In this document: one piece after another, positions 21,948 through 54,201 of the stretch
Numbering within the stretch: position 1 is the first letter of the stretch
Layout: every line of letters begins with the position of its first letter
Origin: an uncultured Chloroflexia bacterium
Lineage (GTDB): Bacteria; Chloroflexota; Anaerolineae; Anaerolineales; UBA4823
Reading direction: 5' to 3'
NCBI GenBank assembly: GCA_963744375.1
Contig: CAVUTH010000008.1
Span: 6,746 to 70,745, forward strand
Length of the DNA: 64,000 nucleotides
Notes under the pieces: generated by a model
Told to the model about the DNA's origin: nothing
Seen by the model: only the letters and a program-made list of their open reading frames with translations
Databases searched by the model: none
Translations under genes and position numbers: made by a program

Positions 21948-22417
21948 TTACTCATTCAGTATGTACTGCTGATGGGTTGGCAGAATATTCTTGATAAAGT
22001 TGCCAGGTAGCATGGCGATTACGCCAAGGTTCGCGATGTTTACTTCATTAATCAGGTTTTTATCGAGTGTGAGGAAGATGAGAGATGGATTCATTAACAA
22101 AGCAGCAGCAACAACATGTGCATCTTTCTTATTCACTCGGCCTTCAAACTGGCGACTCGAATCAGGGAGTGGCATTGGTGCCAGCCTGAAAGGTGTGATT
22201 GCTATTAATGCCTCAAAACGCTGGAGAGCCTCAATGCCTAATTTCGCTTGGATATTGTGCTGAGTTTCCAATAAAACTGGTTGTGAGACATACGCCTGGA
22301 GATATCCCCGGGCACACATGGAAAATAAAAAGCCCGAACCTCCCGTTGGATTGCCTGCAGCCGCGATCAGGCAGGCTGCATCAAAGAATATCCGGGTATT
22401 GGAGTTACAGAGATCAT
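21948..22417 (-). pseudogene. PIN-domain toxin (VapC-like), one frameshift close to the start
   Basis: The ATG at 22417 overlaps the antitoxin stop as ATGA and gives MISVTP. The PIN frame then continues as NTRIFFDAACLIAAAGNPTGGSGFLF...AHVVAAALLMN...FLTLDKN (ORF 21948..22319). One A appears to be missing in CCAATACC. Confidence 0.65.
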
Positions 22418-22712
22418 TTAGTTTCTGAGCGAAAACGTTGGGTGATTGCTAGTGCTTCCTCATCCAAAGTGTCATCTTTCAGAAACTCGCTGATTTCTCT
22501 CCCTGTATACTCGCGGAGGGAAATGTCTTTCCGGGTACGGGTTGCCCACAATAACAAGTCGATGCTTGTCCTGGGAATACGGTAAGCCCTCCAAGCCCCA
22601 GCCTGGAAGCGACCAGCTTTCCCTGGCGAATGTAGCGATATACCGTCTCTCGGTCGATCTGCAGGTATTCAGCTGCCTGTTCAGGTGTGAAAATCTCGGG
22701 TGACCTTTCCAC
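22414..22712 (-). pseudogene. excisionase/MerR-type HTH antitoxin, one frameshift
   Basis: ORF 22479..22712 gives MERSPEIFTPEQAAEYLQIDRETVYRYIRQGKLVASRLG. The remainder (AYRIPRTSIDLLLWATRTRKDISLREYTGREISEFLKDDTLDEEALAITQRFRSETK) is in another frame and ends at 22414. Confidence 0.65.
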
Positions 22713-22898
22713 GATTGCTCCTCGACTCTATTTGATCCTATTATACACGATTTGATAATGAATAGGACCATAATCCACAGGTCGCCACTCAGGCGGTGAT
22801 CCAATATCAGATTTCAGTCCATATCAGGCTGAAAAAGATGGAAATAGCTAGCCATATCAGGCTAAGGAACCATCTCAAGATCGCTCCGAGAAAGTAAA

Positions 22899-23180
22899 TC
22901 AACCCAGGTTGCTGGCTGCCTCTTCCAGGGTAAAAGCACGAATGGTCTCCGTGCGCAGTCCACTTCGGGACAGGGACATCGCAAATTTCATCGCAATGCC
23001 TGCATTTGCCGCCTGGAATACCAGCAGGGAGTCGTATTGCCCTTGAAGCACCAGCCAGGTGGACAGGCTGATCCCCAATCCCTTTGCAGTAGCCTTAACC
23101 TGAGTCATCATTGCCCCGGTATCCTCAGGCTTCATCGCACCGGGGTTGGCGAAGGTCGCCAGGATTACGTATGTTTCCAT
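22899..23180 (-). CDS. GYD domain protein
   Basis: ORF 22899..23192, with METYVILATF as the likely start. The VLQGQYDSLLVF motif and the size of about 93 aa fit the GYD family. Confidence 0.7.
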   Translation of the reverse strand: METYVILATFANPGAMKPEDTGAMMTQVKATAKGLGISLSTWLVLQGQYDSLLVFQAANAGIAMKFAMSLSRSGLRTETIRAFTLEEAASNLG

Positions 23181-23197
23181 AATTGTTCTCATTATCC

Positions 23198-24028
23198 TTA
23201 ACCATGAATCACTCGAACGCGCACGGTCTCGCTCTTGCCTTTTAACTCCAGGTCTCGGATTTCCAGGCTTTCATCATCCAGGTGGGCAGCCTGGTAAGTG
23301 GCCTCACTGATCAAGACTTCACCAGCCAGCGCTTTAGACGCCAACCGGGCGGTGATATTGACGTTGTCGCCCAGGGCGGTAAAATCCGAGGAAGCTTCGT
23401 TCGCACCGGATATGGTGCCGATCCAGGCTGGGCCGGTATGGATTCCAACCCCGACGGGCACCCATGGGCCGCCGGCATCCCTGTGGCCGGTAGCTCTCAG
23501 CAAGGCTTTACCGGCTTCCACCGCCCGCCGGGCGTGCTCTTTACCGGCATAGCCGGGGACAAAAAAGCCGATGACTTCATCGCCAACAATTTTATCGACC
23601 AGCGCATCCGCCTGGATAAGCTCGTTGATGGTCGCCTCGTAGAAGCGATTCATCAGACGGCTGAATTCGCTGGTGCTCATCCTCTCGGCCAGCTTGGTGG
23701 AGCCGCGCACATCGGCAAAGAGCATGCTTAATTCGACCTCTGTGCCTCCAGGGAATTTGTTGTTGAAAATCTCGCAAGCATTGCAGTAGCGTGGATTCTT
23801 GGCGGAGGGCTGGCTGCCATACAGCCCAAAACGGGCCAGAAAACCGCCGAAGCCACCAAAGGGCGTATAGCAGGATGCACAGCGTGGGTTTGATGGAAGT
23901 AATTTGTGAAAATGCCGGGTTTTTCGGTAGTTGGGATCGCCCTCCGAGAGCAGCTTGTGCCACATTTCCTCCACCGTCGTGACCTGGAACATCTTTTGAT
24001 AACTTTTCGGTAGCGGTTTATCGGACAT
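23198..24028 (-). CDS. class III adenylate/guanylate cyclase with N-terminal Cys-rich (zinc-ribbon-like) region
   Basis: 276-aa ORF. The cyclase core reads LFADVRGSTKLAERMS...KIVGDEVIGFF...GIHTGPAW...TALGDNVNITARL. The N-terminus has CASC...CNAC. Confidence 0.8.
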   Translation of the reverse strand: MSDKPLPKSYQKMFQVTTVEEMWHKLLSEGDPNYRKTRHFHKLLPSNPRCASCYTPFGGFGGFLARFGLYGSQPSAKNPRYCNACEIFNNKFPGGTEVELSMLFADVRGSTKLAERMSTSEFSRLMNRFYEATINELIQADALVDKIVGDEVIGFFVPGYAGKEHARRAVEAGKALLRATGHRDAGGPWVPVGVGIHTGPAWIGTISGANEASSDFTALGDNVNITARLASKALAGEVLISEATYQAAHLDDESLEIRDLELKGKSETVRVRVIHG

Positions 24029-24060
24029 GAGGTGTCCCTCTGAGGAGTGTTACTGATAAA

Positions 24061-24168
24061 TTAGACCATAATTATATCATATCCGTCAAATTCCAGATCC
24101 TCGGTGTATCTCAGGATTTTCTTGCAGGATAGCTGGATATCTTCCAGGTACAGCCGGACGTCACGCGA
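24061..24168 (-). pseudogene. truncated HEPN (DUF86-type) toxin fragment
   Basis: My minus-strand translation RDVRLYLEDIQLSCKKILRYTEDLEFDGYDIIMV* matches only the N-terminal third of DUF86 HEPN proteins. It overlaps the MNT stop. Confidence 0.45.
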
Positions 24169-24489: not shown

Positions 24490-25860
24490 TCACCCCGCCG
24501 GGAAGCGCATGGTGAAAGTCGCCCCCTCGCCTAAATGGCTCTCCACCCCGATCTGCCCGCCCATAGCCGTGACCAGTGATTTGGCGATGGTCAGGCCCAG
24601 CCCGGCGTCGCCGTTGTTCTGGCGGGAAGTGTCGCCCCGGTAGAAGCGGTTGAAGACGTTGGGCAAATCTTGGGGGGCGATGCCCGCGCCGTTATCGCGC
24701 ACCCGCAGCAGCACCTGCTTGCCTTCCTGGTTGGCGGAAAGCTCGATCAGGCCGCCGGTTGGCGTGTAGCGCAGGGCGTTGGAGACCAGGTTGCCGAGCA
24801 CCTGCGCCATGCGCTCCGGATCCACATTGACTGTGGGCAGGTCTTCGGCAGCGCTCACCTGCAGCGCCACGCCCTGGGCCTCTGCTTTGGCGGAATAGGA
24901 TTGGCGCGCCCTTTCCAGCATAGCCGCCGGGGGCGTCGCTTGCGGCTGGATAGGCAGCTCGCCGGCATCTGCCAGAGAGAGCGTGCGCAGGTCGTCCACC
25001 AGGCGGCTGAGCTGCCCGGCTGAGTTGTGCATGGTGTCGAAAATCTCGGTCGTGCCGGATAGCTTGCCGTCACTGAGCGCCTCGGTGTAGCCCAGCAGGA
25101 TGCTGAGCGGGTTGCGCAGGTCGTGGGCGATGTCGGCGGTCATCTGCTTGCGCAGGCGGTTGGATTGTTCCAGGTCGGCGCTCATCCTGTTGAAGGAGCC
25201 GGTCAGCTGGCCGATCTCATCGTTGGAGCGCACCGGCACCTGAATGCCCAGCGCTCCCTGGGCAACACGACGGGTAGCCTCGGCCAGCGCATGCAGCGGC
25301 GAGGTCAGCGAGCGCGCCAGCAGCCCGCCCAGCACCAGCGAGACCAGCATGGCGCCGATGGCACCGATCAGGATGGCCTGGTTGATCGTGCTGAGGAAGA
25401 TGCCCTGCGGCGAGCTGCGTTCCCAATCTACCAGAGCGCGCGCACTGAGCAAGTAACCGACCGTATTGCCATCGACTTCGATGGGGATGCCGGTCCTCAG
25501 CTCGGCGGAGCTAACCGTCTGCTGGTCATTGGGCAGGCGGCCGTACACCAGCCGCCCATCGACATCGGCCAGCAGGTAGGGCAGGCGCACCACATCACCG
25601 CGCCCGTCAAGTGGATGATTATCCGGTCTGCCGGGATTCGTGTCCGGTATCTGCACCAGCACCGACTCCAGGTTGCCCCAGCCGCCCTGCGCCTGGTAAT
25701 AGTCGGCCAGGGCTGCGGCCACCTGCTCGATGTTCTGGTCGAACAGGAAGCGGTCGAATGCGGTGCGGGTGCGCTGTTGGATGATCAGCACCGCCAGGCC
25801 GGCGCCTACCAGGCTGACCAGCACGAAGGCCAGGGTGATCTTGGCAAATAATGAGCGCAT
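24490..25860 (-). CDS. sensor histidine kinase (TM-sensor-TM-HAMP-HisKA-HATPase)
   Basis: 456-aa ORF with H-box DIAHDLRNPLS, N-box NLVSNALRYTP, G-boxes DNGAGI and GLGLTIAKS, and two TM segments flanking a periplasmic domain of about 150 aa. Confidence 0.9.
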   Translation of the reverse strand: MRSLFAKITLAFVLVSLVGAGLAVLIIQQRTRTAFDRFLFDQNIEQVAAALADYYQAQGGWGNLESVLVQIPDTNPGRPDNHPLDGRGDVVRLPYLLADVDGRLVYGRLPNDQQTVSSAELRTGIPIEVDGNTVGYLLSARALVDWERSSPQGIFLSTINQAILIGAIGAMLVSLVLGGLLARSLTSPLHALAEATRRVAQGALGIQVPVRSNDEIGQLTGSFNRMSADLEQSNRLRKQMTADIAHDLRNPLSILLGYTEALSDGKLSGTTEIFDTMHNSAGQLSRLVDDLRTLSLADAGELPIQPQATPPAAMLERARQSYSAKAEAQGVALQVSAAEDLPTVNVDPERMAQVLGNLVSNALRYTPTGGLIELSANQEGKQVLLRVRDNGAGIAPQDLPNVFNRFYRGDTSRQNNGDAGLGLTIAKSLVTAMGGQIGVESHLGEGATFTMRFPAG

Positions 25861-26555
25861 CAGATTTTTTCCAGCTGGGCGGCGAAGCGGTAGCCCGCAC
25901 CGTAGAGCGTCTCGATGTACACCGGGTGCGCCGGCTCGGGCTCGATCTTGTTTCTCAAATTATGGATGTGCACGTCGATGGTGCGCTCGTAGCCTTCGTA
26001 GGCGGTGCCTTGCAGGCGCTCGAGCAGCTCCAGGCGGGTGAAGGAACGCCCCGGTGCAGCCATCAGCACCGCCAGCAGGTCGAACTCTGAGGCGGTCAGG
26101 TCCACCAGGCGGTCGCCTACCTTCACCAGCCGCCCGCTGCGGTCCAGGGTGATATCGGAGGCGCGCAGGATATCGGTCTGCAGGTCTTGCTTACCCACGC
26201 GGCGCAGCACCGTGCGCACCCGGGCGGCCAGCTCGCGGATGCTGAACGGTTTGGTGATGTAGTCGTCGGCGCCCAGCTCCAGCCCCAGCACTTTGTCGTT
26301 TTCCTCCAGCTTGGCGGTCAGCAGAATGACCGGCGTGTTGGATTCACGTGCGAACAAGCGCATGAACTCGTAGCCGTCCATCTCGGGCATCATAATATCC
26401 AGGATCACCAGGTCGGGCTTCTCGTAACGTGCCACGAACAGGGCTTCCTTGCCGTTGGAGGCAGTCTCGATGGTGAAGCCCTCCTGGACAAGGTAGGATT
26501 TGAGCATCGAGCGCAGCTGCAGGTTATCGTCAACAATCAGGATTTTCTTGGGCAT
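25860..26555 (-). CDS. OmpR-family response regulator
   Basis: Receiver domain (ILIVDD...DLVILDIMMPEMDG...LTAK) plus a winged-helix output domain (RTIDVHIHNLRNKIE...IETLYGAGYRF). It overlaps the HK start by 1 nt. Confidence 0.9.
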   Translation of the reverse strand: MPKKILIVDDNLQLRSMLKSYLVQEGFTIETASNGKEALFVARYEKPDLVILDIMMPEMDGYEFMRLFARESNTPVILLTAKLEENDKVLGLELGADDYITKPFSIRELAARVRTVLRRVGKQDLQTDILRASDITLDRSGRLVKVGDRLVDLTASEFDLLAVLMAAPGRSFTRLELLERLQGTAYEGYERTIDVHIHNLRNKIEPEPAHPVYIETLYGAGYRFAAQLEKI

Positions 26556-26804
26556 GGGTTTGCATCCACAGATCAGGTTATTGTTCTGTTCTGAGGATAA
26601 CAGGGATTTGTTTAGAAATTATTAAGAAGGTATGTTGAAATCATGATGATTTTTGGAATAATCAGCCACAGATGAACGCAGATTGCCACAGATAGTTAAT
26701 TATTTGAATTCATTTGCATTCATCGGTGGTTGCTCTTAACCCTTTCGTCCAGGGCAATCTATCTGCCCTGGACGAAAACTTTACCAGGCTAGAACTTTAC
26801 TCGA

Positions 26805-27551
26805 TTAGCTATCGGTGCTTGGTGTCGTCGTGTCCGGGTTGGTTGAGTCATCGGGTTGGCCGAACATACCCGGTCCACCATGACCGCCGTGACCGCCGCG
26901 CCCACCGGGACCTTCAAGACCGCCATCCCTGCCAAAAGGTTCCATACCGGGCAGGACGCGCATGCCGCTGCTCAGCACCAGGTCAGCCTGCTCCTGGGTG
27001 ATCACGCCGTCGTCCACGGCCTGCTGGATGGCAGCTTCATAGGCAGCCTGCAGGGCGGTGCGATACTCAGCCGCAGTCAGGCCCTGCTCAGTCAGGATAT
27101 CGGTCATCGAAGTGCCTGCATCGCGGGCCGCTTGCAGCTCTTCCACGGTCATGCCCAGCGCCTCAGCCTGCAGAGCTTCCGGGTCGATGTAGCCTTTCAA
27201 CGCCTGCTGCGCGCGCATCTGGTCGGCTTCTTCCGCCGTCAGGTCGCCGTTTTCCACTGCCTGGTCGAGCGCCGCCGAGTAGGCCTGCTGCTGAGCAGCC
27301 TGCAGCTCTTCGACACTGATGCCCAGGGCTTCGGCCAGCAGGGCATCGTAATCGATGTCGCTGCCGAACATATGCCTGTCAAAGCCGGGCAGCCCGCGGC
27401 CGAGCGGCGCGCTGGTCTGAGTTGTGGTTGTGGCTGTATCCTGCGCCTGGACGAGCTGCGGGGCGAAGGACATCACGCCGATGGCGATTGCGCCAACGAC
27501 TGCCGCCGTGATGGCGGTTTTCCAAACGTTCCATTTCTTGGGTTGTTCCAT
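26805..27551 (-). CDS. hypothetical periplasmic helical-repeat protein with Gly/His-rich tail (CpxP/ZraP-like by context)
   Basis: ORF 26805..27611. I prefer the ATG at 27551, behind AAGGAG. It has an N-terminal anchor and repeated units LLAEALGISVEELQAAQQQAY / LQAEALGMTVEELQAARDAG. The tail reads GGRGGHGGHGGPG. It lies upstream of the RR/HK on the same strand. Confidence 0.55.
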   Translation of the reverse strand: MEQPKKWNVWKTAITAAVVGAIAIGVMSFAPQLVQAQDTATTTTQTSAPLGRGLPGFDRHMFGSDIDYDALLAEALGISVEELQAAQQQAYSAALDQAVENGDLTAEEADQMRAQQALKGYIDPEALQAEALGMTVEELQAARDAGTSMTDILTEQGLTAAEYRTALQAAYEAAIQQAVDDGVITQEQADLVLSSGMRVLPGMEPFGRDGGLEGPGGRGGHGGHGGPGMFGQPDDSTNPDTTTPSTDS

Positions 27552-27689
27552 TGTTGTACTCCTTGTGCAGTATCTGGTTTGTAGTTTGTGATCTGACAGA
27601 CCGTCTGTCATGATCTATACACAAGGATATCAATGGGTTGTTCAGGGAGTGTTAAGAAGTGATTTTGAGATTATTGGGGTCGCGCGATG

Positions 27690-29061: not shown

Positions 29062-30566
29062 TTACTTCCTGATGAGCGGCAAAAAGATCGGTGTGCTGTA
29101 AAGAAACCGCACCGCCGAAGGTTCTACCAGGTTGCCCGTGGCGCTGGCCGGGATATCCACGATGACCCAGTAGGCATAGCGGCTGTTATCCACCGCGCCG
29201 CCCAGGATGGTGCTATCCGAACCGGCCCCGCCGGTGGGAGAGCCGCTGCCGGTGCTGGTGAAGATGGTGGCTAGCTCCTGGTAATTACCCTGGTTCAGCT
29301 CGGTGCGCTGCAGCCGGGCGACACCTGCGATAGCGCTCTTCTCAATCCAGTAAAAGTCCATGCGGTTGATGATGGCCCCATCCGGCAGGTTGACCGGCGC
29401 CAGGTACCAGCCGTTGGCGGTGTTATTGCCCGGACCGTGCTTGTGCTCGATGTGGCGGCCGTGGTTTTCGAAATCGTAGCCGTCCTGGTAAGGCTGGAAG
29501 GCAGCCGCCGGGATCGCCAGCACGTTGTTATAGGGGACCTGCAGACTGTACTCGACGTACACCTCCCTCGCCTCCACCTCCACCGGGTTGCCGGCCGGGA
29601 CGTCGATGACAAGCCAGTAGGTATATAAAACATTGAGCACCTGGGCGTTGGCGATGGACGCAGTGAATGTCGACGCGGTATATGGGCCGCTGCCGGTGCT
29701 TGAGGTGGACGTCGCCATGTGCTCGGTAGTCGTCGTTGGAGAGGAAGGTGCGGTATAAGATAGCGCTAGCAGTCTGGTTGGTATTCATTTTTCGCTGCCA
29801 GTGAAAGCTCAGCCCGGTGACCGCGGCCCCATCCGGCAGGGTTACCGGCGCAAAATACCAGCCGCGCCCGAACAGGTTGGCCGGGCCGCCGAAGGCATCC
29901 ACGTACCAGCCATTATTGTAGTAATCATGCCCGTCGCTGAAGGGCGTGTAGGCCGCCGGCGGGATGGTGACGACACCGGAGGTTGGCGTGGCAGCCGGTT
30001 CGGTGTACTCGATCTGGAAAGCGCAGGCCCAGATCTGTCCGCTGCCGGGGATGCTCATATGGATATAGTAAGTATATGCCAGGTTGTTGATCGGTTCGTT
30101 GATGCTGAAGTGCTGCGGGATGCTGAATGGTAGAACCGAAGCTGGGGGGGAACAGGTCATACGAACTGGGGACGCCGGCTACCAGCTCAAAATTGTTCGT
30201 CCAGCGCAGCGAGCGGTAAAGCGAAGCACTGGTATCCCCCGGCGCACCGGGGTCTTTCCAGAAATAAGTGACTTTGGTGATCAGCGCCCCCTGCGGCAGC
30301 GTTACGGGTGCAAAATAGGTGCCCGGATGGTTCTGCCCGCCCTGGCCGAAGTGGATCAGGTAGCGCCCGTGAATCTGGTAGTTTTGATCATCTGCTGCAG
30401 GCTGGAAGGCCGCCGCCGGGATGGTCAGGTAGCGGGTGCCGCCGCTGGGCAATTCTGGGATGTCGGGTGTGGGGGGCGGTGCAGCCTGTGCGAGGGAAGA
30501 CCGTGGTGCGCCGAGTGAAACGGCCATCAGGAGACAGACAACTAGCGTCAACCATCGAGCTAACAT
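29062..30566 (-). CDS. secreted protein built of three tandem modules of about 165-190 aa, unknown family (2 frameshifts)
   Basis: ORFs 29925..30566 (signal peptide MLARWLTLVVCLLMAVSLGA), 29528..30160 and 29062..29718 each contain IP(A/P)AA(F/Y)xP...G(T/W)YFAPVxLPxGAxI...FxW...LxR and then (Y/W)Y..W..(I/V).(I/V)P. Frame changes fall at a G7 run (30144-30150) and near 29721-29727. Confidence 0.7.
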
Positions 30567-30796
30567 AAGTCCCTCCTGGATCTAAAGGAAGAAAGCCGGT
30601 TATTTTTCGTAATTATACCGCAATTATCGGGATATAATGATTCTCACGTCCTGGGGGGATCACCCTGGACCAGGGACGCAAAGATAAACACTTAACCTGG
30701 TGAGCTTTGCGCCCTGGCGAAGGTCAGCCGGGAAATCAGCTTTGCGTGAGTATATTCTTGAAACTTCCCGTATAATCCTTCCCAGGAGGTAGCTCT

Positions 30797-32146
30797 ATGG
30801 AACTTGCAGCCCAGATCGTCCTGGCAGTAGCCGGATTGGTTATCTTGCTGTTTTCGCTGCTTTTCGCTATCCCAAGCTTTCGCCGGCAGGAAATCCGGGC
30901 CGGGTATATTGGCCTGGCAGGGGCAGCAGCTGGCACGATCTTGCTGGCGGCCGTCTATTTACCGGCCCCTGGCAGGATCATCCTGGCGGGGGCGATTGTG
31001 GCGCTTGGGATTGCCGCCGGGCTGATCCTGGCGCTGCCGGTTGGGAGGGTGGCTCTACAGCCTCAGCGCCCAACCCGGCGGGTGGACGAGCGCACCATCA
31101 TGTTCGCTCGCCACCGCCTGGTGCCGGGCTCGCCCCAGTATGCTAGCTACTACCGGGTGCATCCAGAGCACCAGGAGATCGACGATGCCATCCGGGCTCT
31201 TCCTGGGTTGCTTTCAGCCAAGGCGCCGATGGCTAACCCGCTGGCCTTTGCCGCCACGGATGCGGCTTTCTTCCTGGCGGAATCGCTGCGCGAGGCCGTG
31301 GATGGCCTGCCGGCGCAGGAACCGCACTCGCTTTCTCCGGAATCGGCTACTCGCTATGTCAAACAGCTTGCTCACTATTGGGGCGCCCGCCGCTGCGGAG
31401 TCGCTGAGGTGCGCGATTACCAGGTTTACTCGCACATCGGGCGCGGCGCCGGCGTCTATGGCGAGCCGATCGAGATGGAGCACCGTTACGTGCTGGTCTT
31501 CACCTTTGAGATGGCAGAAGACATGCTTCGCACCGCTCCCCGGGCGCAGGAGACGATGGAAACTGCCCACCAATATAGTGAAGCAGCCCAGGTCGCCGTC
31601 CAGATAGCTGCCTGGATTCGGGCGCTGGGCTACCCGGCCCGGGCGCACATCGACGGCAACTACCGATTGATCCTGCCGCTGGCAGCACGAGATGCCGGTT
31701 TGGGTGAGATTGGGCGAATGGGGCTGCTGATGACCCCCGACCTGGGGCCGCGCGTGCGCCTGAGCGCCGTCAGTACCAATATGCCGCTGATCCCAGATTC
31801 CCCCGGCGATAGCCCGGCCGTGCTGGATTTCTGCAATATCTGCCGCAAGTGCGCTGAAAACTGCCCAAGCAAAGCCATCCCACAGGGCGACCGGCAGGAG
31901 ATCGACGGAGCGCTGCGCTGGAAAATCGACGCCGAAAAATGCTTCCGCTACTGGAACAGCGTTGGCACCGACTGCGGGCGCTGCATGATGGTTTGCCCGT
32001 ACTCGCACGCCTCCGACCCGGCCCACAATGCCATGCGGCAGCTTGTTGCACGCTCTGGTGTGGCGCGGCGCATCGGCTTGCGCCTGGATGACTGGTTGTA
32101 TTCCCGCAAGCCAAAAGTGCGCCCCGGGCCGCGCTGGACCCTGTAA
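30797..32146 (+). CDS. membrane-anchored reductive dehalogenase / QueG-like 2x[4Fe-4S] protein
   Basis: 449-aa ORF with AGGAGG upstream. It has three N-terminal TM helices. The core reads LAARDAGLGEIGRMGLLMTPDLGPRVRLSAVSTNMPL, followed by FCNICRKCAENCPSKAI and CGRCMMVCPYS. Confidence 0.65.
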   Translation: MELAAQIVLAVAGLVILLFSLLFAIPSFRRQEIRAGYIGLAGAAAGTILLAAVYLPAPGRIILAGAIVALGIAAGLILALPVGRVALQPQRPTRRVDERTIMFARHRLVPGSPQYASYYRVHPEHQEIDDAIRALPGLLSAKAPMANPLAFAATDAAFFLAESLREAVDGLPAQEPHSLSPESATRYVKQLAHYWGARRCGVAEVRDYQVYSHIGRGAGVYGEPIEMEHRYVLVFTFEMAEDMLRTAPRAQETMETAHQYSEAAQVAVQIAAWIRALGYPARAHIDGNYRLILPLAARDAGLGEIGRMGLLMTPDLGPRVRLSAVSTNMPLIPDSPGDSPAVLDFCNICRKCAENCPSKAIPQGDRQEIDGALRWKIDAEKCFRYWNSVGTDCGRCMMVCPYSHASDPAHNAMRQLVARSGVARRIGLRLDDWLYSRKPKVRPGPRWTL

Positions 32147-32163
32147 TATGAAGGAGTTTCACT

Positions 32164-33735
32164 TTGCCCGATGTCCCTATCCCCGGAATTTTTGTTGAAG
32201 AAGGCGCACCACCGCCCCCGATTGTTGGGGTGAGCACCAGCACCGCCGGGTTCGCCGGTGCGGCCGAGCGCGGCCCGGAATATGCCTGCCTGGTCACCAG
32301 CTGGGCAGAGTACCAGCGCCTGTATGGCGGGGGCAACCCCAGCCAGTCGTTCCTGGCGGATGCCGTCTATGGCTTTTTCGCCAACGGCGGACGACGCAGC
32401 TATGTCACTCGCGTCGTCCCAGGGGCGGCCAGGGCTGCTTCGGCAGGCCTGGGAGGACTGGTTGTGCGGGCTATCGGCCGCGGCCCGTGGGGGCAGAATA
32501 TCTTCTTCAAGTTCGAGCCTTCCGCGACGCCCGTCGATGGCGAGACCCGCTACAAGATCAGAATCTGGTACTACCGGGCGCCGGTGCCTCGCGGCAACCC
32601 CGACCCCAGCGCACCCGATGCCAGCCCCAACCGCCGAAAACCTGAGGCCTTCGAGCAGTATGACAATCTGACCGGCGAGCAGGGGGCGGAAAACTACCTG
32701 CTTGATGTGATCAATTCACATTCCAACCTGGTGCGGGTGGCCTGGGATGCACGCCGCCGGCCTGCATTACCGGCCAATCCACTGACCGTGCGCCTGAGGC
32801 GAGCCGCCTCGGGCGGCAGCCTGCAGCTGGCCGATTTTGAAGGCGATCTCGACCCGATCGGCGGGTTGGCAGGCGCACCCCTGGGCAGCGGGCGCGGCTT
32901 GAAAGCCCTGGAGGCGATCGATGAAATCGCCCTGCTGTGTGTGCCTGATGAAGTTCATCCGACCCTGGCCGCATTGCGTAGCCCGCTGCGGGCGGCCATC
33001 CTGAACCAGTGCGAGACCCGCCGCGACCGCTTTGCCATCCTGTCGGCGGAGGCAGGTCGCAGCGATATCGACCATCCGCCCCTGCTGCCGCCCGGGGACA
33101 GCGCCTACGCGGCTTTTTATTACCCCTGGATTGAAGTCTTGGATCCGCAATCGCAAAAGAAGCGCCTGGTGCCTCCGACAGGGCACCTGGCTGGAATTTA
33201 CGCCCGCACCGACCTGGAGCGTGGGGTGCACAAGGCGCCGGCCAATGAGGTGGTGCGCGAAGCGCTCAACCTGGAGCTGCCGGTGACCCAGGCAATCCAA
33301 GATGCCTTAAACCCGCGCCAGGTGAACTGCCTGCGCGATTTTCGCCCGGACTCGCGCGGCATCCGGGTGTGGGGGGCGCGCACGATGTCTTCCGACCCAG
33401 AGTGGCGCTATGTGAATATCCGGCGCTTGTTTATCTTTGTGGAAAACTCGATCGCCCGGGGTACCCAGTGGGTGGTGTTTGAGCCCAATGACGAGCCCTT
33501 ATGGGCGCGGGTGCGCCAGAACGTCACGAATTTTCTGGTTGACCTGTGGCGCAGCGGCCTTCTGCTAGGCGCTACCCCGGACCAGGCATTCTTCGTACGC
33601 TGCGACCGCAGCACGATGACTCAGCACGATATCGATCACGGCCGTCTGATCTGCCTGATCGGGCTGGCGGCGGTCAGGCCGGCCGAGTTTGTCATCTTCC
33701 GCATCGGGCAAAAAACCGCCGGCGCCTCGGAATAA
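32164..33735 (+). CDS. contractile tail sheath family protein (phage/eCIS/T6SS-type), solitary
   Basis: 523-aa ORF with a TTG start 7 nt after AAGGAG. N-terminus: PGIFVEE..VGVSTSTAGFAGAAERGP..LVTSWAEYQRLYGG...FFANGGRRSYVTRV. C-terminus: GVHKAPANE...GIRVWGARTMSSDPEWRYVNIRRLFIFVENSI..WVVFEPNDEPLWARV...PAEFVIFRIGQ. Confidence 0.85.
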   Translation: MPDVPIPGIFVEEGAPPPPIVGVSTSTAGFAGAAERGPEYACLVTSWAEYQRLYGGGNPSQSFLADAVYGFFANGGRRSYVTRVVPGAARAASAGLGGLVVRAIGRGPWGQNIFFKFEPSATPVDGETRYKIRIWYYRAPVPRGNPDPSAPDASPNRRKPEAFEQYDNLTGEQGAENYLLDVINSHSNLVRVAWDARRRPALPANPLTVRLRRAASGGSLQLADFEGDLDPIGGLAGAPLGSGRGLKALEAIDEIALLCVPDEVHPTLAALRSPLRAAILNQCETRRDRFAILSAEAGRSDIDHPPLLPPGDSAYAAFYYPWIEVLDPQSQKKRLVPPTGHLAGIYARTDLERGVHKAPANEVVREALNLELPVTQAIQDALNPRQVNCLRDFRPDSRGIRVWGARTMSSDPEWRYVNIRRLFIFVENSIARGTQWVVFEPNDEPLWARVRQNVTNFLVDLWRSGLLLGATPDQAFFVRCDRSTMTQHDIDHGRLICLIGLAAVRPAEFVIFRIGQKTAGASE

Positions 33736-33748
33736 TCCCCTCGAGCGG

Positions 33749-35904
33749 TTATTTCCCGCTGCCGGCTTTTAATACCCCGTGTACCGTGGTGCTGTAGTAT
33801 GCGATGCTGGGATTGAAAGGATCCAGGCTGATATTTTGCACGGTGTGCCCCGCCAGCTCGGCTGAGACCGGCTGCCAGGTAATCCCACCATCGATCGTTG
33901 TGTAAGCGCCGTCCGTCGTTCCCGCCAGGATATGCTGCGAGTTCGGCCGCAGCGATGCTGATCCAGGCGACGGTCTGACCGCTCAGCCCCAAGGGCTGCC
34001 AGCTGCCGCCGATCAGCTGGTACACGCCGTCGTCGGTGCCGGCCAGCGGCGCGCCCGGGTTGGCCGGCGACACTGCCAGGGCATACACATCCCGGTTGGG
34101 GATGGAAGAATTATTCCACGAGCCGCCCCCATTGCTAGAGACTTTCACGACGCCTGACTGGCTGGTGGCGGCGTAGACCGTCTGCGGATCGAGCGGATCT
34201 ACGGCCAGCGCCCAGACCGTCTGCGAGGAAAGCCCGGCGGACTGCCAGTTGAAACCGCCATCGCTGCTGGAAAATGCGCCGCCCGAAGAGCTGCCGATGT
34301 AGGCGATGCTGGGGTTGGAGGGGGCAAAGGCCATCGCCAGCAGCCCGTAATTGCCCGGCACCGCTTCGATCGAGAGCGAGTCCGGCGGGTACGCTTCCTG
34401 GAAGGTGGTGAAGGGCGAGAAGGGGCGCGGGACGCGCAGCGATTGAATGGCATCTTGCTGGCTGTCGGTCGGCAGGTTGCCGCCTACCTGATCCCAGCAC
34501 AGGGCCAGGTTCTGCAGGTCGCAGCGGTACAGGCCGGCGCCTTCGGTGAAGGCGAACAGCACGCTGATTGCCCGGCTGCTGCACCAGCCCATTGACCCAT
34601 TCGCTGCCAATATTGTTGCTGAAATCGCTCCAGGTCAGGCCGCCGTCGCTGGAAACCTGCACCCCGCCGCCATCCACGCCGGCATACAGTTCCGACGGGT
34701 TGAGCGGCGAGACGACCACTCCGGTGGCGGAGGACGCCTGCAGCCCGTCCATGCTGGGCGACCAGCTGCTCCCGCTATCCCGGCTGGCGTACAGCCCCAG
34801 CCCGGCCGTCCCGGCGAAGACCAGGGCGCTGTTCCCCGGGTGCACCCGCACGGTGGATACCGGCCGGTTGGATAGGGCCGCGTTGGACCAGGAATTGCCG
34901 CCGCTGCTGGTGCTCATCACGCCTTTGTTGTAGGTCGCCAGGTACACCTTCTGCGGGTTCGCATAGTCGATGTCCAGCCCGTAAATGTTCGCCCCGCTGA
35001 TGCCGCTGCTCTTCTGCGTCCAGGAGCCGCCCAGGTTGGTGGTTTTGAAGGCGCCTTCACCGGTCCACACCCCGGTGTAGGCCGTGCCGGCGCTGGCGCT
35101 GGTAGGGCCGATGCCGATCCCCCGGGTGGTGAAGCGGGTGATGCCGTTATTGGCCGCCCCCCAGCCGCTCCCGGCGTTGGTGGTCTTATAAATCCCGTGC
35201 TCGTGGGTGGCGGCCATCAGCGTGGAGGGCGAGGTCCGGCTGATAGCCAGCATGTAGGTCCAGTCCTGGTAATTCGATCCGCCCAGGTTGGAGAGCACGG
35301 AGTACCAGCTGGCCCCGCCGTCATCGCTGCGGTAGGTGACGCCCGCCCAGGGCTGCCCGCCGTTATTGGACAATCCGCGCGTGGCGGCATACACCCGCTG
35401 CGAAACCTGCGGGTTTACCACCATGGAATACACAATTGCATTGCCCTGGATGCCCTGGTTGGCCTCACTCCAGGTACTCCCCCCGTCGATGGTCTTGTAC
35501 ACGCCGCCGCGGTAAGTGCCGGCGTAAGCAATATCCGGGTTAGAGGGGTCGGCCGCCATCGAGACGACCGTCAGGTTGCCCAACCCCCGGCTGGCCCAGC
35601 GCCAGGTCAGGCCGCCGTCATCGCTGCGGTACACGCCGCCGCCCCACGAGCCGGCATAGACCCGGTTGGCATCCTGCGGCGATGCCGCCACTGCGGCGAT
35701 CAAGCCGCCATCCGGCCCCAGCCAAACCGGTTGGACCGCCTCCACCACGATGGGCAGGTACAGCAGCAGGTTGGAGGCCGCCTGCTCGGCAAGCGCGGGT
35801 TCCGCCGCCGGCGCCGGCTGGGATCCCAAGCGGAACCAGGCTCCCAGCGCCAGCGAGCACAGTGCCAGCATGCATATCCAGGTGACAAGCAGGGTGCGTT
35901 TCAT
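33749..35904 (-). CDS. secreted BNR/Asp-box repeat beta-propeller protein (sialidase/Ycf48-like fold), 2 frameshifts
   Basis: ORF 34135..35904 has a signal peptide and many S(x)DGGxTW units. It continues in ORF 33636..34610 and then in a third frame that ends ...PSIAYYSTTVHGVLKAGSGK* at 33749. Frame changes fall near 34565 and 33950. Confidence 0.75.
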
Positions 35905-37115: not shown

Positions 37116-38112
37116 TTAAGGCTTTGTCTTGATCTTTCCAGCAATAATATCCTCTTTGATCCGCTCCAGGTCGGCCTTCACCTGGTCGGAGATCAGCCAA
37201 TCCAGTTCGTAGAAGGGCGAGATGCCGACTTCGCCGCTGGCCAGCGTGCCGGTATGAATGCCGCCGGAAAAGCTGCCGTTGGCGATGGCCTGGGCTGCCT
37301 GGGTCACACTGGCAGCGTAGCGCTTTTCGATGCTGGTCAGGATGACCTCCCTCAGATCGGGTGAGCTCAGCGCCCAATCATTATCCACGCCGATCATCCA
37401 GGCGCTCGCCGTGTTCCAGGATTTCTGCCCCGGCGCCCCAGCCGATGCTCTCTCCGGCCACCGGCAGGATGATATCCGCGCCTTGCTCCAGCAGCTGCCG
37501 CGCCAGCGCCCTGCCTTCCGTAGTGCAGCAAAAACCACCGGCGAATAATCCGCTGTGTTTGGCCGGGTCCCAGCCGAGCACCTGGATATCTGTGCCATGC
37601 TTCTGGTTGTAATAGCTCACTCCCAGGGCGAAACCGTCCATAAAGCCGGTCACCTGCGGGATATCGACCCCGCCAAAGACGCCCACCTTGCCTGTTTTGG
37701 TCGCCGAGGTGGCCGCGTAACCGGCCAGGAAGGCTGCCTGATCGGTGGCATACACCTGAGTCCACAGGTTATCCGGCTGGTCCTCCAGCACAAAATCGGT
37801 GACCATGAACTTTTGCAGCGGGTTAGCCAGAGCTGCTTTACCAACCGCTTCCACAGCGACCCTGGCGCGACAACCACATGACAGCCGCTGTCCATGAGAG
37901 CATTGATGTTCCCCTCGAAATCGGAAGCTGCCGGCGAACTCCAGCACAGTGGCTTCCCAGCCATGCTGGCCGGCCGCCTGCTGTACTCCTTCATATATAA
38001 ACTGATTGAAGTAAGAATTGTTCAGGCCGCCGGTGTCCGTCACCTGGCAGATGCGGCCCTGCTCCACGATCGGCAGTGCAGTCGGCTCGGCGGGAGGCGC
38101 CGGCGGGATGCA
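37116..38112 (-). pseudogene. BMP-family (Med/PnrA-like nucleoside-binding) domain, at least 3 frameshifts, no own start or signal peptide; possibly the C-terminal domain of the upstream WD40 gene
   Basis: Pieces in ORFs 37381..38067, 37650..37994 and 37116..37598: ICQVTDTGGLNNSYFNQFIYEGVQQAA.., DFEGNINALMDSGCHVVVA.., TKTGKVGVFGGVDIPQVTGFMDGFALGV..., GADIILPVAGESIGWGA.., MIGVDNDW.... This frame opens just after a TAG at 38122-38124. Confidence 0.7.
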
Positions 38113-41100
38113 GCCAGCTCTCTACCCGGTGCAGGTACTTCTGGCATTCGTCCACGGTCAGCGAGCGGGTTACCAGTGACCTGGCCAGGGCTGCCAGCTC
38201 CTGGGTATCCAGCAGGTAAAAACGCACCCCATCCGCATTAGCCGCCGCCAATCGTTTCCCATCCGGGCTGAAAGCCAGGCTATAATGCCCGGCGCCGTTG
38301 TCGAAGAAGGTGAGCAGCTCCTCACCCGTCGCAGCATCCCACAGCTTGGCGCTCCCATCCTGGCTGGCGGTGCCGATACGCGTACCATCCGGGCTGAAGG
38401 CGGCGCTGGTGACTGCGCCGGTGTGCCCGCTCAGTACCAGCAGCTCTGCCCAACTGCCTGTGTCCCACACTCTGGCGCTGCCATCCATGCTGGCGCTAAC
38501 CAGCCGCTCACCATCCGGGCTGAAACCTAACGAAAGGATTGAGTTGGTGTGCCCTTGCAAAGTGGTGCTTTCCTTTTTGGATTCCAGGTTGAACAGGCGC
38601 ACGCCTGCCGTTATGGAGACCGGCTGCCAGCATGGCTGCCATCCGGGCTGATCGCCAGGGATTTGATCTCATTTTGCAGCTCAAAGGTATCGACAGGCTG
38701 CATTTCTGCGCTGCTCGTCAGCTCTGCTGGGGAGATATCCCACAGCTTGATCTTAAAGTCGTCGCTGGCAGTGGCCAACAGCATGGCCTGGGGGTGAAAG
38801 GCGAGCCGCGTTGATCCGTCCGGTGTGAGCCGGCCACTGGCGCAGCAGCTCGCCGCCGAGGCGGCATCCCAGACTTTCACGACAGCCTCTTCGCCGGCGG
38901 TGGCGATGAGCTTGCCGTCCGGGCTGAAGGCATAGGCCGAGACCCAATCACCGCCCACCGGCAGGGATTGCATCTCCTGGCCAGTGGCTGTTTCCCACAG
39001 CTTGACCGCATCTCCCTGGCCGCCGGCCAGCAGCGCGCCATCCTGGGCTGAAGGCAACCTGACCGCCGACGCCGCCAGGCTCGAAAATGGCCTGTCCTTC
39101 GCGTGCCGGCAGGATATCCCAGGTACGCAGGCTGCCATCCTCGCTGCCGGAAGCTAATTGCGTGCCGTCCGGGCTGAAAGCCAGCCCGGTGATCGCTCCG
39201 TTGTGGCCGTTCAGGGTGAAAATTCGGCGGCCGGTGGCTGTGTCCCACAGGATGATTTTGCGATCGGCGCCCCCGGTCGCCAGGCGGCTGCCGTCCGGGC
39301 TGAAAGCGACGGCTTGAATATCGTATTCAGGTGCCCGCCGAAGGTGAGCAGCTTTTGCCCGCTTTCGGCATCCCACAGCATGGCTTCAGTCTCGCTGACG
39401 GTCGCGATGCGGCTGCCATCCGGGCTGTAAGCCGCCGCCCACACCCAGCCCGGATGACCGGCAAGCTGCAGGATCTCCTGGCCGCTGGCGGCATCCCATA
39501 CCCGGGCTGTGCGGTCGTCGCTGATGGTCAGCAAACGGTTCCCATCCGGGCTGAAGACTGGCCCCGGAGACGTAATCGGTGTGGCCGGGGAAGTTGGCCA
39601 GCTCGTTTCCGGATAGCGAGATCCCAAACTCTGGGCAAATTGCCCGCTGGTGACCGTCGCCAGCCGGGCGCCATCCGGGCTGAAATCGACTGTGGCGCCG
39701 GCATCGATGTGCCCGTTGAGCGGCAGCGCCTCGCCGGTAGCGGCATCCCACAGGGCGACGGCTGCCATCGGCAAGCACCGTGGCAAGCCGGCGTGCCATC
39801 CCGGCTGAAGGCGGCGGCATGCCCGGCGGTCGTGAACAGCCAATCGTCCCGTCAGCCGAGCCCCCAGACTTTCACCACCTCGTCCGGGCTGGCGGCTGCC
39901 AGGCTGTTTGCCATCCGGGCTGTAGGCCAGGCTGATCGCTTTGCCCTGGCTCGCCGGCGGGGATGACCTGCCGCACCCTGGATGCCAGCACTGCCTGGTG
40001 CAGCGCTTCTTCGCGCCTCAGGTCGTATCGGCGGCATCCAGCGCCTCAAGGCCCAGCAGCAGGCTGCGCTCGGGGTCAATTTCCAGGCTGCCGGATAGCG
40101 GCGGCTGCCAGCTCACGCGAAGCTGCCAGGCGGCCTTCGCTCAGCCACTGCCGCCCGATGAACAACGCCAGCGAATGCCATCAGGGCGGCCAGGACGAAG
40201 GCCACGGCCAGGTAGATGGAGCGTTTGCGCAGCTGCCCTGCGGCGTGGGCCTGCTCCTCGGCGCGCCGCCGCTCGGCTTCGGCCAGTTTTTGGGCAGCCT
40301 CCAGCTCGCGCTGGCGTTGTGCTTCGCGCTCGATGCGCTTCGCACTCGGCAAAATCCTGCGCCGCGGCGATAAATTCGCGTTCCAGCGGGTTCATCTCGT
40401 CCTGATGGCCGGATCGGCCCATTCCACGTGCCTGCGCCAGCCGGGCGCCGCGATAGAGCACATCCGGCTCGCGGCTCCAGGTCGGCCCACTCCTGGGCGG
40501 CTTCGGTCAGGTGACGGTGCAGGCGCAAGCCCTCACGGTTGTCTTCCAGCCAGCCGCGCAGCGTCGGCCACTCGCGGATCAGCGCCTCGTGCGCCACCTC
40601 GGCCGAGTTTTCGCTGGTGGTGATCAGGCGGGCATCGGCCAGGGCTTTGAGCACCAGCTGGGTGGTGTCTGCCTCTTCCGGCTTCAGGATCAGCTCATTG
40701 AATGTCGCCCGGCGGCGGGTATCGCCGGTGGCTGTTTCGTCACCCAGCTCGGTCAGCCGCAGGAAGATGCGGCGGGCGATCTGCCCGCTGCTCGGGCTTG
40801 AATTGATCGGTGAAAACCGCTTCGGCGGTCTCGGCGATCGCGCCGCGCACCCCGCCCGAGGAGGTGTAGCCGCTCAGGGTCATCATGCGCCCGCGCCGGC
40901 GCTGCCAGGTCTCGAACAGCGCATGCGAGAGCAGCGGCAATGCCCCGGCTCATGGCCCACATCGTGCAGCAGCAGATCCACCAACCCCGGCTCGAGCTCC
41001 CAGCGCCCGCGGCGGGCAGGTTCCTCGATCGCCCGGCGCAGCTCCTCATCATTCATCGCGCCGATGTACTCCTGCTGTCTGCGCCAGGGCATCGCGCAGC

Positions 41101-43907: not shown

Positions 43908-46900
43908 TCAAACAACTCGCTGGTCGGTGCAGTTTTTCCCCGGGCCGCCCTTGATGCGCACATCCTTACGCACCGTGTTATTGGCTGCTACCGGATCGAA
44001 GGTGGTCGAGGTGACCGAGGCAAAGTTAGAGATAATCCTGACGCTGCCGCGCACATCGACAATGATATCCACGCTCACCGTTTGTCCGGCGGGCAGGGTG
44101 CCGAAGTTGCAGACCACATTGTGCAGCGCCAGGCTGTAAGCGCACAGGCCATTGCCGCTGTCCATCACATAGACAATCTTCTTCGGGTCCATCGGCAGTG
44201 TATCGGTCATCACCACATTCAAGGCATCCGAGGCGCCCAGGTTGGTGATCGTGATGACGTACTGGATGCGCGGGGCGGGATTGATGGTCAGGAAGTTGGC
44301 GGCTTTGGTGATCATCAGGTCGGCGCTGGCGTTAACCAGCGTGTCCTCCTGCACCATCACCGGAGCGGCCTCCAGCGCATCGGCAGTGGCGGTGTTCGTC
44401 AGAGTCGTGCCATGCGGCACCGAGGAACTCACCAGCACGGTGAAGATCACCTTGACATACGCGCCCGGATCCAGGTCGTTCAGATCGCAGTACAGCGTAT
44501 CGGGCGGATTTGCCAGCAGCGAACAGGTGCCTGAGCCGTTGGATATGGAGTAACCCTGGTAGCTTGACTCCGCCGGGCAGCAGGTCGCTCAGGGTGACAT
44601 CCGTGGCGGTGGAAGGCCCGTTGTTGCTGATGGTGACCTCGTAGGTCAGGATCATACCGGCGATCACCGGGTCGGGTAAATCCGTCTTGGTGATGCTCAG
44701 CACGGCCATAGCGTCTACCTGGACGGCCACCGTGGCCAGGTTGTCGTCGTTATCCCCATCGTAGGTGTCGCTGGAAACGCTGGCGTTGTTGCCCAGCACG
44801 CCGCGTGTCCCCGGTAAGACGTGCACGACGATGGTCATCGTCTCGGAGGCGCCATCCGCCAGCGAGTTGAAGGCGCAGGTCGTCGGCAGGGCTGCATTAC
44901 CGGGCACGCCGGCATTACAAACTCCATTGGTCGCTGAAACACTCTGGATGGTCACGCCGGCCGGCATGACATCCGAGATGACTACATTGACCGCTGTGGA
45001 GGGGCCATTGTTGGTCACTTGCAGGGTGTAAGTCAGGTCCGTCCCCGCCACCACCGGGTTAGGCGCGGCTGTTTTGGTCAACGCCAGGTTGGCGGCCGGG
45101 GTGACTGTGGTGCTGTCTTGTGCAACGTTATTGCCTGGGACCGGGTCGGGGGTGATGCTGGAGACCGTGGCGGTGTCGTTGATATCCTGGCCTTCATCGG
45201 CGCTGAGCACCACCTTGATCGTGGCTATAGCGCCAGCGCTCAAATTGCCTATATTGCAGCTTACATCACCCCCACCTATTTGTGGGTTGGCGGGGAAATT
45301 GCATACTCCCAGGGTGGATGTGGCGCTGACAATGTTGAATGTTCCGCTGCTCACGATCGCGTCAAGCAGAGCAACCGATTGGGCAGTTGAAGGTCCCAGG
45401 TTTTCGATGACGATGGTGCAGGTCGCGGTATCACCGGCATACCATGGGGTGCCCTGGCGATCGGGCTTGCAATCCTTCGTTACCCTCAGGTCGGCTTCTT
45501 CGATGACTATGGTGTCCGCGGTTGCGCTGTTGTCGCTCATGTCAGGATCAAACTCGGTCGCGCTTACCGTCGCCGTATTGCTGAGTGTATTGGTGCCATT
45601 GGCGATCAAAGACGCGGATACTCGCACCACGACATCGAAGGGTATGCTGGCACCAGGAGCCATATCTCCCAGGTTGCAGGTTAAGGTTGGATTGGCGAAG
45701 GTGCAGCCTCCCGTATTGGAGATATAAGTCACCCCGGCAGGCAGGCTGTCACTGACGACCACATCCGTTGCCTGGCTGGGGCCGTTGTTTGTCACCGTGA
45801 TTGAGTAGGTCAGCAGGCCACCGGCAGTCACCGGGTCCGGTGAGTCGACTTTCGTGATGGACAGGTCGGCCTGGTTGCAGGTGGGGAAGCGGAAAGCACC
45901 GACGCGTGTAGCCCAGCCTCCGTTCGCCAGGCCGTACTCCTGGGTGTACCAGAAGGTGCAGCCATCCACCGGATCCAGGCTCATATCGCTGTAGTCACCC
46001 CAGCGACCCGGACAGGGATTGCCACCGCAGACCAGGTTTTGTGATCCCGTTCCGTTCATCAGCGTAACCTCACCGTGGGGCAGCAATCCAAGCGGATCGC
46101 TGGCCAGGCGGCCGGCGTAACGGATGCCCGGGAAAGTGGCATTGTTGTCGGACACGCTGTAGCCAAGAGCCATGTTACCGGCTTTATCCATGGCAACACT
46201 GCCCATCCAGCGGTGCAGCCAGGCCGGCGCACCCACCTGCTGTGGGGCATAGGTGCCTTGCTGGAACAGAGTCCAGGCGCCAGCTCCGGCCGGGGTTCGG
46301 CGCAGCTCATACCAGCGGATGCCGGTATTCCCGTTGCCATCGGCATCTACCGTGTGGTTAAAGACCATGGCTTCATATGCGCCAAAGTTATGGTATTGCA
46401 GACGGAACATCGGCCAGACTGTGATTCCAGCCAAATTCTGCATCCCCACTCCTGGCTGTGGGATGCAGTATTCCATCAGGCTTCCTGGGGCGCACAGGCC
46501 CGAATCGAAAGGTGCGGTATTCAGCGCAGTTGGACCGCTTAATGTGGAGTTGGCCGGGTTGCCCCAATCCACGCTGAACTGGAAGACTTCGACACGGTCG
46601 TTGCCGCCCCACAGGCCGCCATCCATCATGCGAGCGAAGAAGGCCGGGCTGCCTGCCGGCGGTGCATTCCAGTCGGCATCGCTGGGCAGCAGGACGATAG
46701 CAGGGCTGCCTACAGTGGCGACCTGGAAAGTCGCCGGGTTTCCGTTGAGCATGTTAGCCCGGTCGAATGCCATGACGTTCAGATCGCCACCAGTGTAGCC
46801 CCGTTGGGAAGTCAGGTAATAGGCATCCGGCCAGACGCTCATCTTGGGGTAATCGTGTCCGAAGTTGAACTGGAACTCGTACAGGTACCAGCCGCCGTTC

Positions 46901-54153: not shown

Positions 54154-54201
54154 TTATCCCGCTGCCGTACCCTCAGCCGCCATCCTTGAAAGCCCAAAGC
54201 C

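Follow-up and report, generated by a model that had tools for sequence, protein, structure and literature searches.

The Locus

To our knowledge, sheath proteins are known only within complete contractile machines, namely phage tails, tailocins, extracellular contractile injection systems (eCIS), and type VI secretion systems (T6SS). The stretch of DNA analyzed here, 64,000 nucleotides (nt) of contig CAVUTH010000008.1 from an uncultured Chloroflexia bacterium of the order Anaerolineales (hereafter the window), encodes a solitary sheath of the contractile injection system (CIS) type. The sheath gene directly follows, on the same strand, a gene for an Fe-S protein resembling the reductive dehalogenase RdhA. 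The pair and the ribosome-binding site between its members comprise the following features:

30797..32146, + strand: gene for a membrane-anchored protein of the reductive-dehalogenase superfamily (RdhA-like), 449 amino acids (aa), with three N-terminal transmembrane helices and two 4Fe-4S motifs
32151..32156, + strand: Shine-Dalgarno sequence AAGGAG, read directly, within the 17-nt spacer and 7 nt before the TTG of the sheath gene
32164..33735, + strand: orphan CIS sheath gene with a TTG start, encoding a full-length sheath-1-type subunit of 523 aa

A Complete CIS Sheath Subunit

The TTG start of the sheath gene aligns with the M1 that is conserved in the family, and since the open frame begins at 32152, no in-frame start exists further upstream. 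The product scores above the gathering cutoffs of both Phage_sheath_1 (PF04984; E-value 2.8e-15, 57.0 bits against a cutoff of 31.4) and Phage_sheath_1C (PF17482; E-value 1.5e-16, 60.7 bits against 26.9), and the homologue search places it in a family with approximately 8,000 matches. The nearest solved structures are the sheath of the cytoplasmic CIS of Streptomyces coelicolor (8BKY), matched at full length (residues 1-522 to 1-530, 3e-106), and that of a haloarchaeal CIS (9EZM), also matched at full length (1.3e-119). An AlphaFold monomer model (pLDDT 80, pTM 0.80) is sheath-like, with Foldseek aligning it to 9EZM at 3.6e-49 and template-modelling scores of 0.79/0.84. Both terminal arms are alignable, MPDVPIPGIFVEE at the N-terminus and RPAEFVIFRIGQ at the C-terminus, with low pLDDT for both in the monomer model. 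In solved sheaths, the N-terminal arm donates a strand to the adjacent subunit.

The 523-aa product is thus a complete, genuine CIS sheath subunit. The initial annotation of this DNA, made from the sequence alone, had recognized sheath signatures in this open reading frame (ORF) and had described its TTG start, with AAGGAG 7 nt upstream, as lying 17 nt after the preceding stop. Both descriptions hold, the former through the Pfam matches, the homology to solved structures, and the predicted fold, that is, through the profile searches and structure prediction that the annotation had itself suggested. A prophage-tail origin was rejected, as the closest sheaths are those of eCIS and other CIS, phage sheaths are distant (T4 gp18, approximately 3e-08), and the genes of the window are ordinary chromosomal ones.

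The window sheath shares full-length homology, the size class of approximately 520-575 aa, and a surface insert domain with the sheath of the S. coelicolor cytoplasmic CIS (8BKY/8BL4/9GTP; PMC10066040), and the same fold, size class, and surface insert domain with that of the Halogeometricum borinquense CIS (9EZM; PMC11566945). Both of these papers study CIS gene clusters (PMC10066040; PMC11566945), and the solved sheaths come from assembled particles with tube and baseplate. The window sheath differs further from 8BKY and 9EZM in clade-specific changes of the N-terminal arm and in having no tube or baseplate genes within the 64 kb.

Solitude of the Sheath in the Window

The solitude of the sheath was assessed with profiles derived from other sheath loci. 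A set of 82 such loci was collected with flanks, same-strand ORFs were clustered, and hidden Markov models (HMMs) were built for the 20 families occurring in at least eight loci. Two of the 20 are off-frame ORFs inside sheath genes, leaving 18 real families, which include tube, Pvc16_N, LysM-tube, VgrG-like, gp25, baseplate, and spike. A six-frame, stop-to-stop search of the 64 kb with the 18 family HMMs at E ≤ 1 finds the sheath alone; apart from the sheath HMM, only the two off-frame, sheath-internal families matched. Among the 66 comparison sheath loci flanked by 3 kb or more on each side, the same HMMs detect CIS genes at 63. Pfam, run on 47 ORFs of the window, returns ABC transporters, two-component systems, a GNAT acetyltransferase, glycosyltransferases, and WD40 and DUF11 repeat proteins.

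The approximately 30 kb to each side of the sheath contain no other CIS component, and the earlier claim that nothing else in the 64 kb resembles a tube, baseplate, or spike gene is borne out by both the 18 HMMs and the Pfam scans. PADLOC gives no defense-system match for the sheath, the RdhA-like protein, or the conserved neighbors, its one match (0.0015) being at chance level, and the Rfam search of the window and of the related loci L009 and L001 is negative, for riboswitches as for all other families. The central position of the gene pair in the window, to which the initial annotation had drawn attention, carries no biological meaning.

An Orphan Clade Related to eCIS Sheath 1

In Anaerolineales, Acidobacteriota, and other groups, the sheath relatives at 55-62% identity stand as the first sheath gene in complete eCIS clusters. 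The order in these clusters is Pvc16_N, a gene of approximately 306-353 aa, sheath 1, tube, sheath 2, tube, LysM/CIS_tube, VgrG, PAAR, gp25, and baseplate genes. The same 55-62% identity holds at full length against sheath 1 of Afp/PVC-like eCIS from Chloroflexota and Acidobacteriota (L002, L005, L008, L010), with which the window sheath shares identical Pfam domains and the same N- and C-terminal motifs. The setting differs, as sheath 1 of the eCIS clusters stands after Pvc16_N and the approximately 306-353-aa gene and before the tube, whereas the window sheath stands after the RdhA-like gene and faces a convergent BNR repeat gene.

In a neighbor-joining tree, the window sheath and the sheaths P0001, P0002, and P0007 form one clade with 100% bootstrap. 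The members of this orphan clade are the window sheath, its relatives at approximately 96% identity (L001, L011, L093, L094), a relative at 84% (L007), and P0007 of locus L009 at 59%; the Anaerolineae metagenome-assembled genome (MAG) PPR_0243 holds a further copy that is 97% identical. A metagenome scan with the orphan-clade alignment returned six loci and no new lineage of the clade, and the best 120 sheath homologues contain no further members. Locus L009, with its sheath at 59% identity, is syntenic with the window, and its sheath is solitary as well. The neighbors conserved with this locus are the following:

24490..27611, − strand: histidine kinase, OmpR-type response regulator, and 268-aa secreted protein
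29062..30566, − strand: secreted three-repeat protein, split over three frames in the window, without a Pfam family

Between the window and L009, the histidine kinase is 76% identical, the response regulator 92%, and the 268-aa secreted protein 78%; the three-repeat protein is 64-69% identical to a single 500-aa ORF of L009. Given the fully supported clade, this synteny, and the solitary state of the sheath in L009, the simplest reading is that the sheath was stranded once, in the ancestor common to the clade.

Selection and Altered Constraint

The ratio of nonsynonymous to synonymous divergence (dN/dS, or omega) of the sheath is 0.16-0.18 against L001, 0.13-0.17 against L007, and 0.27 against L009, the synonymous divergence (dS) of the last comparison being saturated, while pairs of cluster-embedded sheaths give 0.11-0.13. 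The orphan ORF is intact and full-length wherever a contig covers the gene, across lineages at dS > 1. The sheath is therefore no relic; purifying selection has kept it intact in a lineage in which its protein sequences diverge by approximately 40%.

Constraint on the orphan sheaths is nonetheless altered relative to that on the embedded ones. Embedded sheaths are approximately 67-71% identical to one another in the groups compared, and the orphans are 55-64% identical to them. At 217 reference positions with 90% or higher conservation in the embedded sheaths, the window sheath keeps 190 conserved residues and P0007 keeps 171, against at least 202 in embedded sheaths and approximately 135 in the sheath-2 paralogues. 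The orphan clade evolves faster than cluster-embedded sheaths. Its changes are also unevenly placed: of 18 substitutions common to both orphan branches, five fall on the 17 conserved columns of the N-terminal arm and 13 on the 200 columns elsewhere (p = 0.007). In the window sheath, seven of these 17 arm positions are altered, including the five common to the L009 orphan, and only one of 67 conserved columns has changed in the core (residues 241-410). The altered positions also include the charged residues E428, R452, and E474. Since the arm is the strand-donating element, the shared arm substitutions and the almost untouched core suggest an altered assembly interface rather than decay.

These data bear directly on the possibility that the gene is a decaying remnant, the last and functionless member of a degraded eCIS or prophage tail cluster that has not yet been inactivated. 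The solitude of the sheath, its faster evolution, and the frameshifts in both flanking genes of the window are what such a remnant would display. The ORF, however, has stayed intact across lineages at dS > 1 (with L007 and L011 cut by contig ends), omega remains at 0.13-0.27, and the core is nearly unchanged; the window holds no remnants of other CIS genes at E ≤ 1, and synteny with L009 is conserved. Decay is accordingly the least probable of the explanations weighed here, and a very improbable one. The initial annotation had offered a stranded sheath gene as one of two alternatives, and this survives in amended form: the gene encodes a true CIS sheath, has no other CIS component within approximately 30 kb, and is not a relic.

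The Upstream RdhA-Like Protein

The protein encoded upstream of the sheath passes the reductive dehalogenase model TIGR02486 marginally (162.6 bits, cutoff 160.35) and matches Fer4_7 at 2.2e-09. Three hydrophobic helices lie within residues ~5-80, and the Fe-S motifs are CNICRKCAENCP at 346-357 and C382-x10-C393xxC396xxxC400P. Among PDB structures, residues 89-438 match NpRdhA (4RAS) at 3e-45, and PceA (4UQU) is matched at 3.3e-39. The window protein shares the homologous catalytic domain and the two Fe-S motifs with both, lacks the C-terminal reductase module of NpRdhA, and has a domain of the corrinoid/Fe-S type of the superfamily. More than 3,900 homologues of approximately 450 aa were detected in several phyla. 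By the positive-inside rule, the catalytic domain is predicted to be cytoplasmic.

An identity as QueG was ruled out (TIGR00276, 42.4 bits against a cutoff of 200; QueG structures in PDB match only at approximately 7e-06). Of the earlier designation "RdhA/QueG-like," the RdhA part therefore stands and the QueG part falls, while the description of a 449-aa protein with three N-terminal transmembrane helices and two 4Fe-4S Cys clusters was correct. The protein also does not conform to the respiratory RdhAB type: motif inspection finds no twin-arginine translocation (TAT; RR) motif, no rdhB lies beside the gene, whose neighbors are the sheath and the secreted repeat protein, and three fused transmembrane helices are present instead. 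Fused transmembrane helices have been described in some deltaproteobacterial RdhA homologues (PMC6129605), and in both cases they replace a separate anchor protein.

A Probably Young Gene Pair

The TAA stop of the RdhA-like gene ends at 32146, leaving a 17-nt gap before the TTG of the sheath gene. Scans for sigma-70 promoters and terminators around the pair give nothing above chance, and the spacer contains no terminator-like site. Given the short gap and the lack of a terminator between them, the two genes are likely co-transcribed in the window. The pair had been annotated as translationally coupled; a 17-nt gap in which the sheath has its own Shine-Dalgarno sequence points to probable co-transcription and supplies no evidence of coupling.

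It could be supposed that the two genes form a functional module in which the sheath polymer works with the RdhA-like Fe-S enzyme, for example as a membrane-tethered redox scaffold. Their spacing without a terminator would suit such a module, as would the predicted cytoplasmic orientation of both proteins and the occurrence of the pair in four samples of one population (L001, L093, L094, L095), where the RdhA-like proteins are approximately 89% identical to that of the window. Beyond this population, whose members are approximately 89-96% identical, the adjacency is not found. The syntenic orphan sheath of L009 has no RdhA-like gene, a relative of the RdhA-like gene at 67% identity, located on a contig of 1 Mb, has a convergent PGI gene after it and no sheath alongside, and the contig of a 72% relative ends just past the gene. 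Among the four RdhA-like locus types with neighbors examined, a sheath adjoins only in the near-identical population, and no sheath stands beside the more distant members examined of this family of more than 3,900.

The divergence between the window and L001 also separates the two genes. To the left of approximately 32,235, identity is 80-90% over the upstream gene and intergenic region, over the RdhA-like gene, and over the initial ~70 nt of the sheath gene; to the right, it is 95-99.5% over the remaining sheath and the BNR gene, with dS at 0.50 against 0.13 on the two sides. This sharp change, which falls within ~25 codons of the sheath start, indicates a recombination breakpoint, and the RdhA-like and sheath genes thus differ in their recent history. 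A conserved block lies upstream of the pair:

30611..30639, + strand: 11-nt-periodic direct repeat AATTATACCGC/AATTATCGGGA followed by TATAAT, a candidate promoter/operator

This block is identical to L009 5807-5830 at 20 of 24 nt and is the only one in the window, with 0 chance matches expected. In L009 it precedes the sheath by 148 nt, and in the window it precedes the RdhA-like gene by 163 nt, so that the RdhA-like gene stands between the sheath and what would be its ancestral promoter region. The RdhA-like gene was either inserted in the window lineage or deleted in the L009 lineage, and the block would act as a promoter.

With the pair limited to a near-identical population, a conserved functional partnership of the RdhA-like protein and the sheath is not supported, and a two-gene module is very unlikely. 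The suggestion in the initial annotation that the sheath was co-opted together with a redox partner is weakened by L009, which has no RdhA-like gene and in which the conserved block directly precedes the sheath, by the 67% relative without a sheath, and by the breakpoint.

Two minor observations concern the regulatory sequences. Under a loose pattern, three AATTAT repeats spaced by 11 nt occur in the window (30611-30639, 24059-24075, and 3874-3890) against 0.07 expected, a figure biased by AT-rich intergenic regions; one lies 31 nt upstream of an adenylate/guanylate-cyclase-domain gene that adjoins the histidine kinase/response regulator operon. The conserved response regulator of the OmpR type (25860-26555) may bind these repeats. 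In L009, the leader preceding the solitary sheath contains a strong hairpin at 5878-5925, GGGGUGUUUUUUUU...AAAAACACCCC (z = -3.8 for the 136-nt leader), which is not conserved in the window and has no Rfam match.

Solitary Sheaths in Other Phyla

Of the 66 sheath loci that have 3 kb or more of sequence on each side, three (approximately 5%) show no CIS family within ±10 kb:

L018, 9995-11542: solitary sheath of Acidobacteriota on a 1.7-Mb contig
L039, 9917-11485: solitary sheath of a Mesorhizobium MAG, 75 nt downstream of same-strand genes for molybdenum cofactor and flavin adenine dinucleotide subunits of the xanthine-dehydrogenase family
L055, 10001-11479: solitary sheath of Nitrospiraceae on a 2.9-Mb contig, facing a divergent tyrosinase gene

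Each of these sheaths occupies its own long branch, and their neighbors are mutually unrelated, comprising tyrosinase and YchF, xanthine-dehydrogenase subunits and an aconitase-family subunit, and unknown proteins. These three solitary sheaths in unrelated settings indicate that stranding of sheath-1 genes recurs. Full-text searches, including a sheath-evolution paper and an eCIS review, yielded no description of a solitary sheath gene. The sheaths of L039 and L055, like that of the window, adjoin oxidoreductase genes, which might be read in favor of a redox module; with so few cases, this adjacency (three of four solitary-sheath lineages) was set aside as a post-hoc coincidence, and the solitary sheaths of other phyla have no common partner.

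Possible Roles of the Orphan Sheath

Taken together, the locus is best explained, and with some confidence, by a functional orphan sheath paralogue that arose once and long ago in its lineage and has since gained an incidental, young operon partner. According to phylogeny and synteny, the sheath would have been separated once from its gene cluster, in the ancestor of a small Anaerolineae lineage, and would since have persisted as a lone functional gene, with the same two-component system and the secreted repeat protein nearby. With the complete fold and both terminal arms retained, it most likely still self-polymerizes, and the faster evolution and the remodelled N-terminal inter-subunit arm would reflect an altered assembly role. 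This may be that of an extra sheath paralogue for an injection system encoded elsewhere or that of tube-less, polysheath-like tubules in the cytoplasm. The adjacency of the RdhA-like gene would be a recent juxtaposition in the species-level population of the window, an accidental operon rather than a two-component system.

Several points weigh against this explanation. The orphan clade rests on four sequenced lineages, two of its loci (L007 and L011) are cut by contig ends, and its placement among the cluster-embedded sheaths is weak (bootstraps 0.40-0.43) in trees that are neighbor-joining only; the comparison with L009, the most divergent member, is the one in which dS is saturated. In L001, L093, and L094, the closest relatives of the window, the upstream repeat has degenerated in its second half, which weakens the idea of an operator. 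The pair, moreover, recurs in four samples of its population, and some local functional link is possible.

The first of the two roles corresponds to a displaced component, in which a CIS cluster lies elsewhere in the genome and the window gene supplies one sheath layer in trans, either as the main sheath or as a specialized cap- or baseplate-proximal paralogue in the manner of Afp2/3/4 and Pvc2/3/4. Related clusters carry two sheath paralogues, solved eCIS structures hold up to three sheath species (Afp2-4, Pvc2-4), and CIS clusters occur in other Anaerolineae/Anaerolineales genomes (L010/L012, L036, L058). Retention of the fold and both arms, under purifying selection near that on embedded sheaths, would also be expected of such a component. 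A parallel exists in T6SS, where orphan islands of hcp/vgrG/PAAR are found away from the main cluster (PMC13098142), so that parts of a contractile machine are likewise encoded apart from it. The orphan clade, however, is not nested in the nearest Anaerolineales embedded sheaths, unlike a recent duplicate, and its faster evolution and remodelled N-terminal arm fit less well. The species-representative MAG gives no second sheath match, a weak negative from a pattern-limited scan of a fragmented MAG. A displaced component is a serious contender, though we put its chances at somewhat below even.

The second role would make the orphan sheath a domesticated CIS component that acts without tube, baseplate, or spike, for example as regulated cytoplasmic tubules in filamentous Anaerolineae. 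We know of no natural cellular role for polysheaths, the tubes formed by sheath subunits alone. The recombinant sheath gp053 of phage FV3 is reported to self-assemble into polysheaths without other tail proteins (PMC6357053), and the stable tubes formed by this subunit alone offer a mechanistic precedent for a tube-less role. This is in vitro or over-expression behavior of a phage protein, whereas polymerization of the window sheath is a prediction. Domestication is put forward tentatively; if it is correct, solo sheaths would have arisen independently in Acidobacteriota, Nitrospiraceae, and Mesorhizobium as well and would constitute a recurrent, undescribed class of exapted sheaths.

Under the favored explanation of a functional orphan paralogue, a lone sheath that has been under selection for so long suggests either that injection systems are more dispersed than cluster-based surveys assume, in which case such surveys would miss or miscount components, or that the contractile polymer has been reused. 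The solitary rate of approximately 5% (3/66) suggests that the phenomenon may be general, and it would be cheap to survey. The locus also serves as a warning that two closely spaced genes, like the RdhA-like gene and the sheath gene here, can amount to no more than an accidental operon of recent origin.

Flanking Genes and Other Features of the Window

As initially annotated, both flanks of the pair encode secreted repeat proteins on the opposite strand, and both genes are frameshifted relative to intact orthologues. The three-repeat gene on the left is intact in L094 (501 aa). The gene on the right is as follows:

33636..35904, − strand: convergent BNR/Sortilin-Vps10 repeat protein (Sortilin-Vps10, 1.3e-20), disrupted in the window

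Comparison with the intact 726-aa copy in L001 reveals two +1 insertions in the BNR gene, at 33942 and 34567, together with a deletion of 60 nt at 34438. Other genes of the window also appear fragmented, namely WD40 (37991-39138), Bmp (37381-38067), and Acyl_transf_3 (53218-54942). The broken genes represent either indel errors of long-read assembly or real pseudogenes.

Degenerate CCCCAAT-like short repeats fill the intergenic segment 36030-36130, which is 59 nt longer than its counterpart in L001. Low-GC islands lie at 8001-10000 (0.42), 22001-24000 (0.52), and 62001-64000 (0.46), against approximately 0.60 elsewhere, and may be horizontally acquired segments; the ORFs at 8584-9243 and 9268-10155 have no Pfam family. 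A CHAT (caspase-like) domain and a C-terminal FGE-sulfatase domain occur together in a 994-aa protein encoded at 48265-51249; the gene of this protein is preceded, on the opposite strand, by that of a 1,109-aa DUF11 repeat protein (44332-47661).

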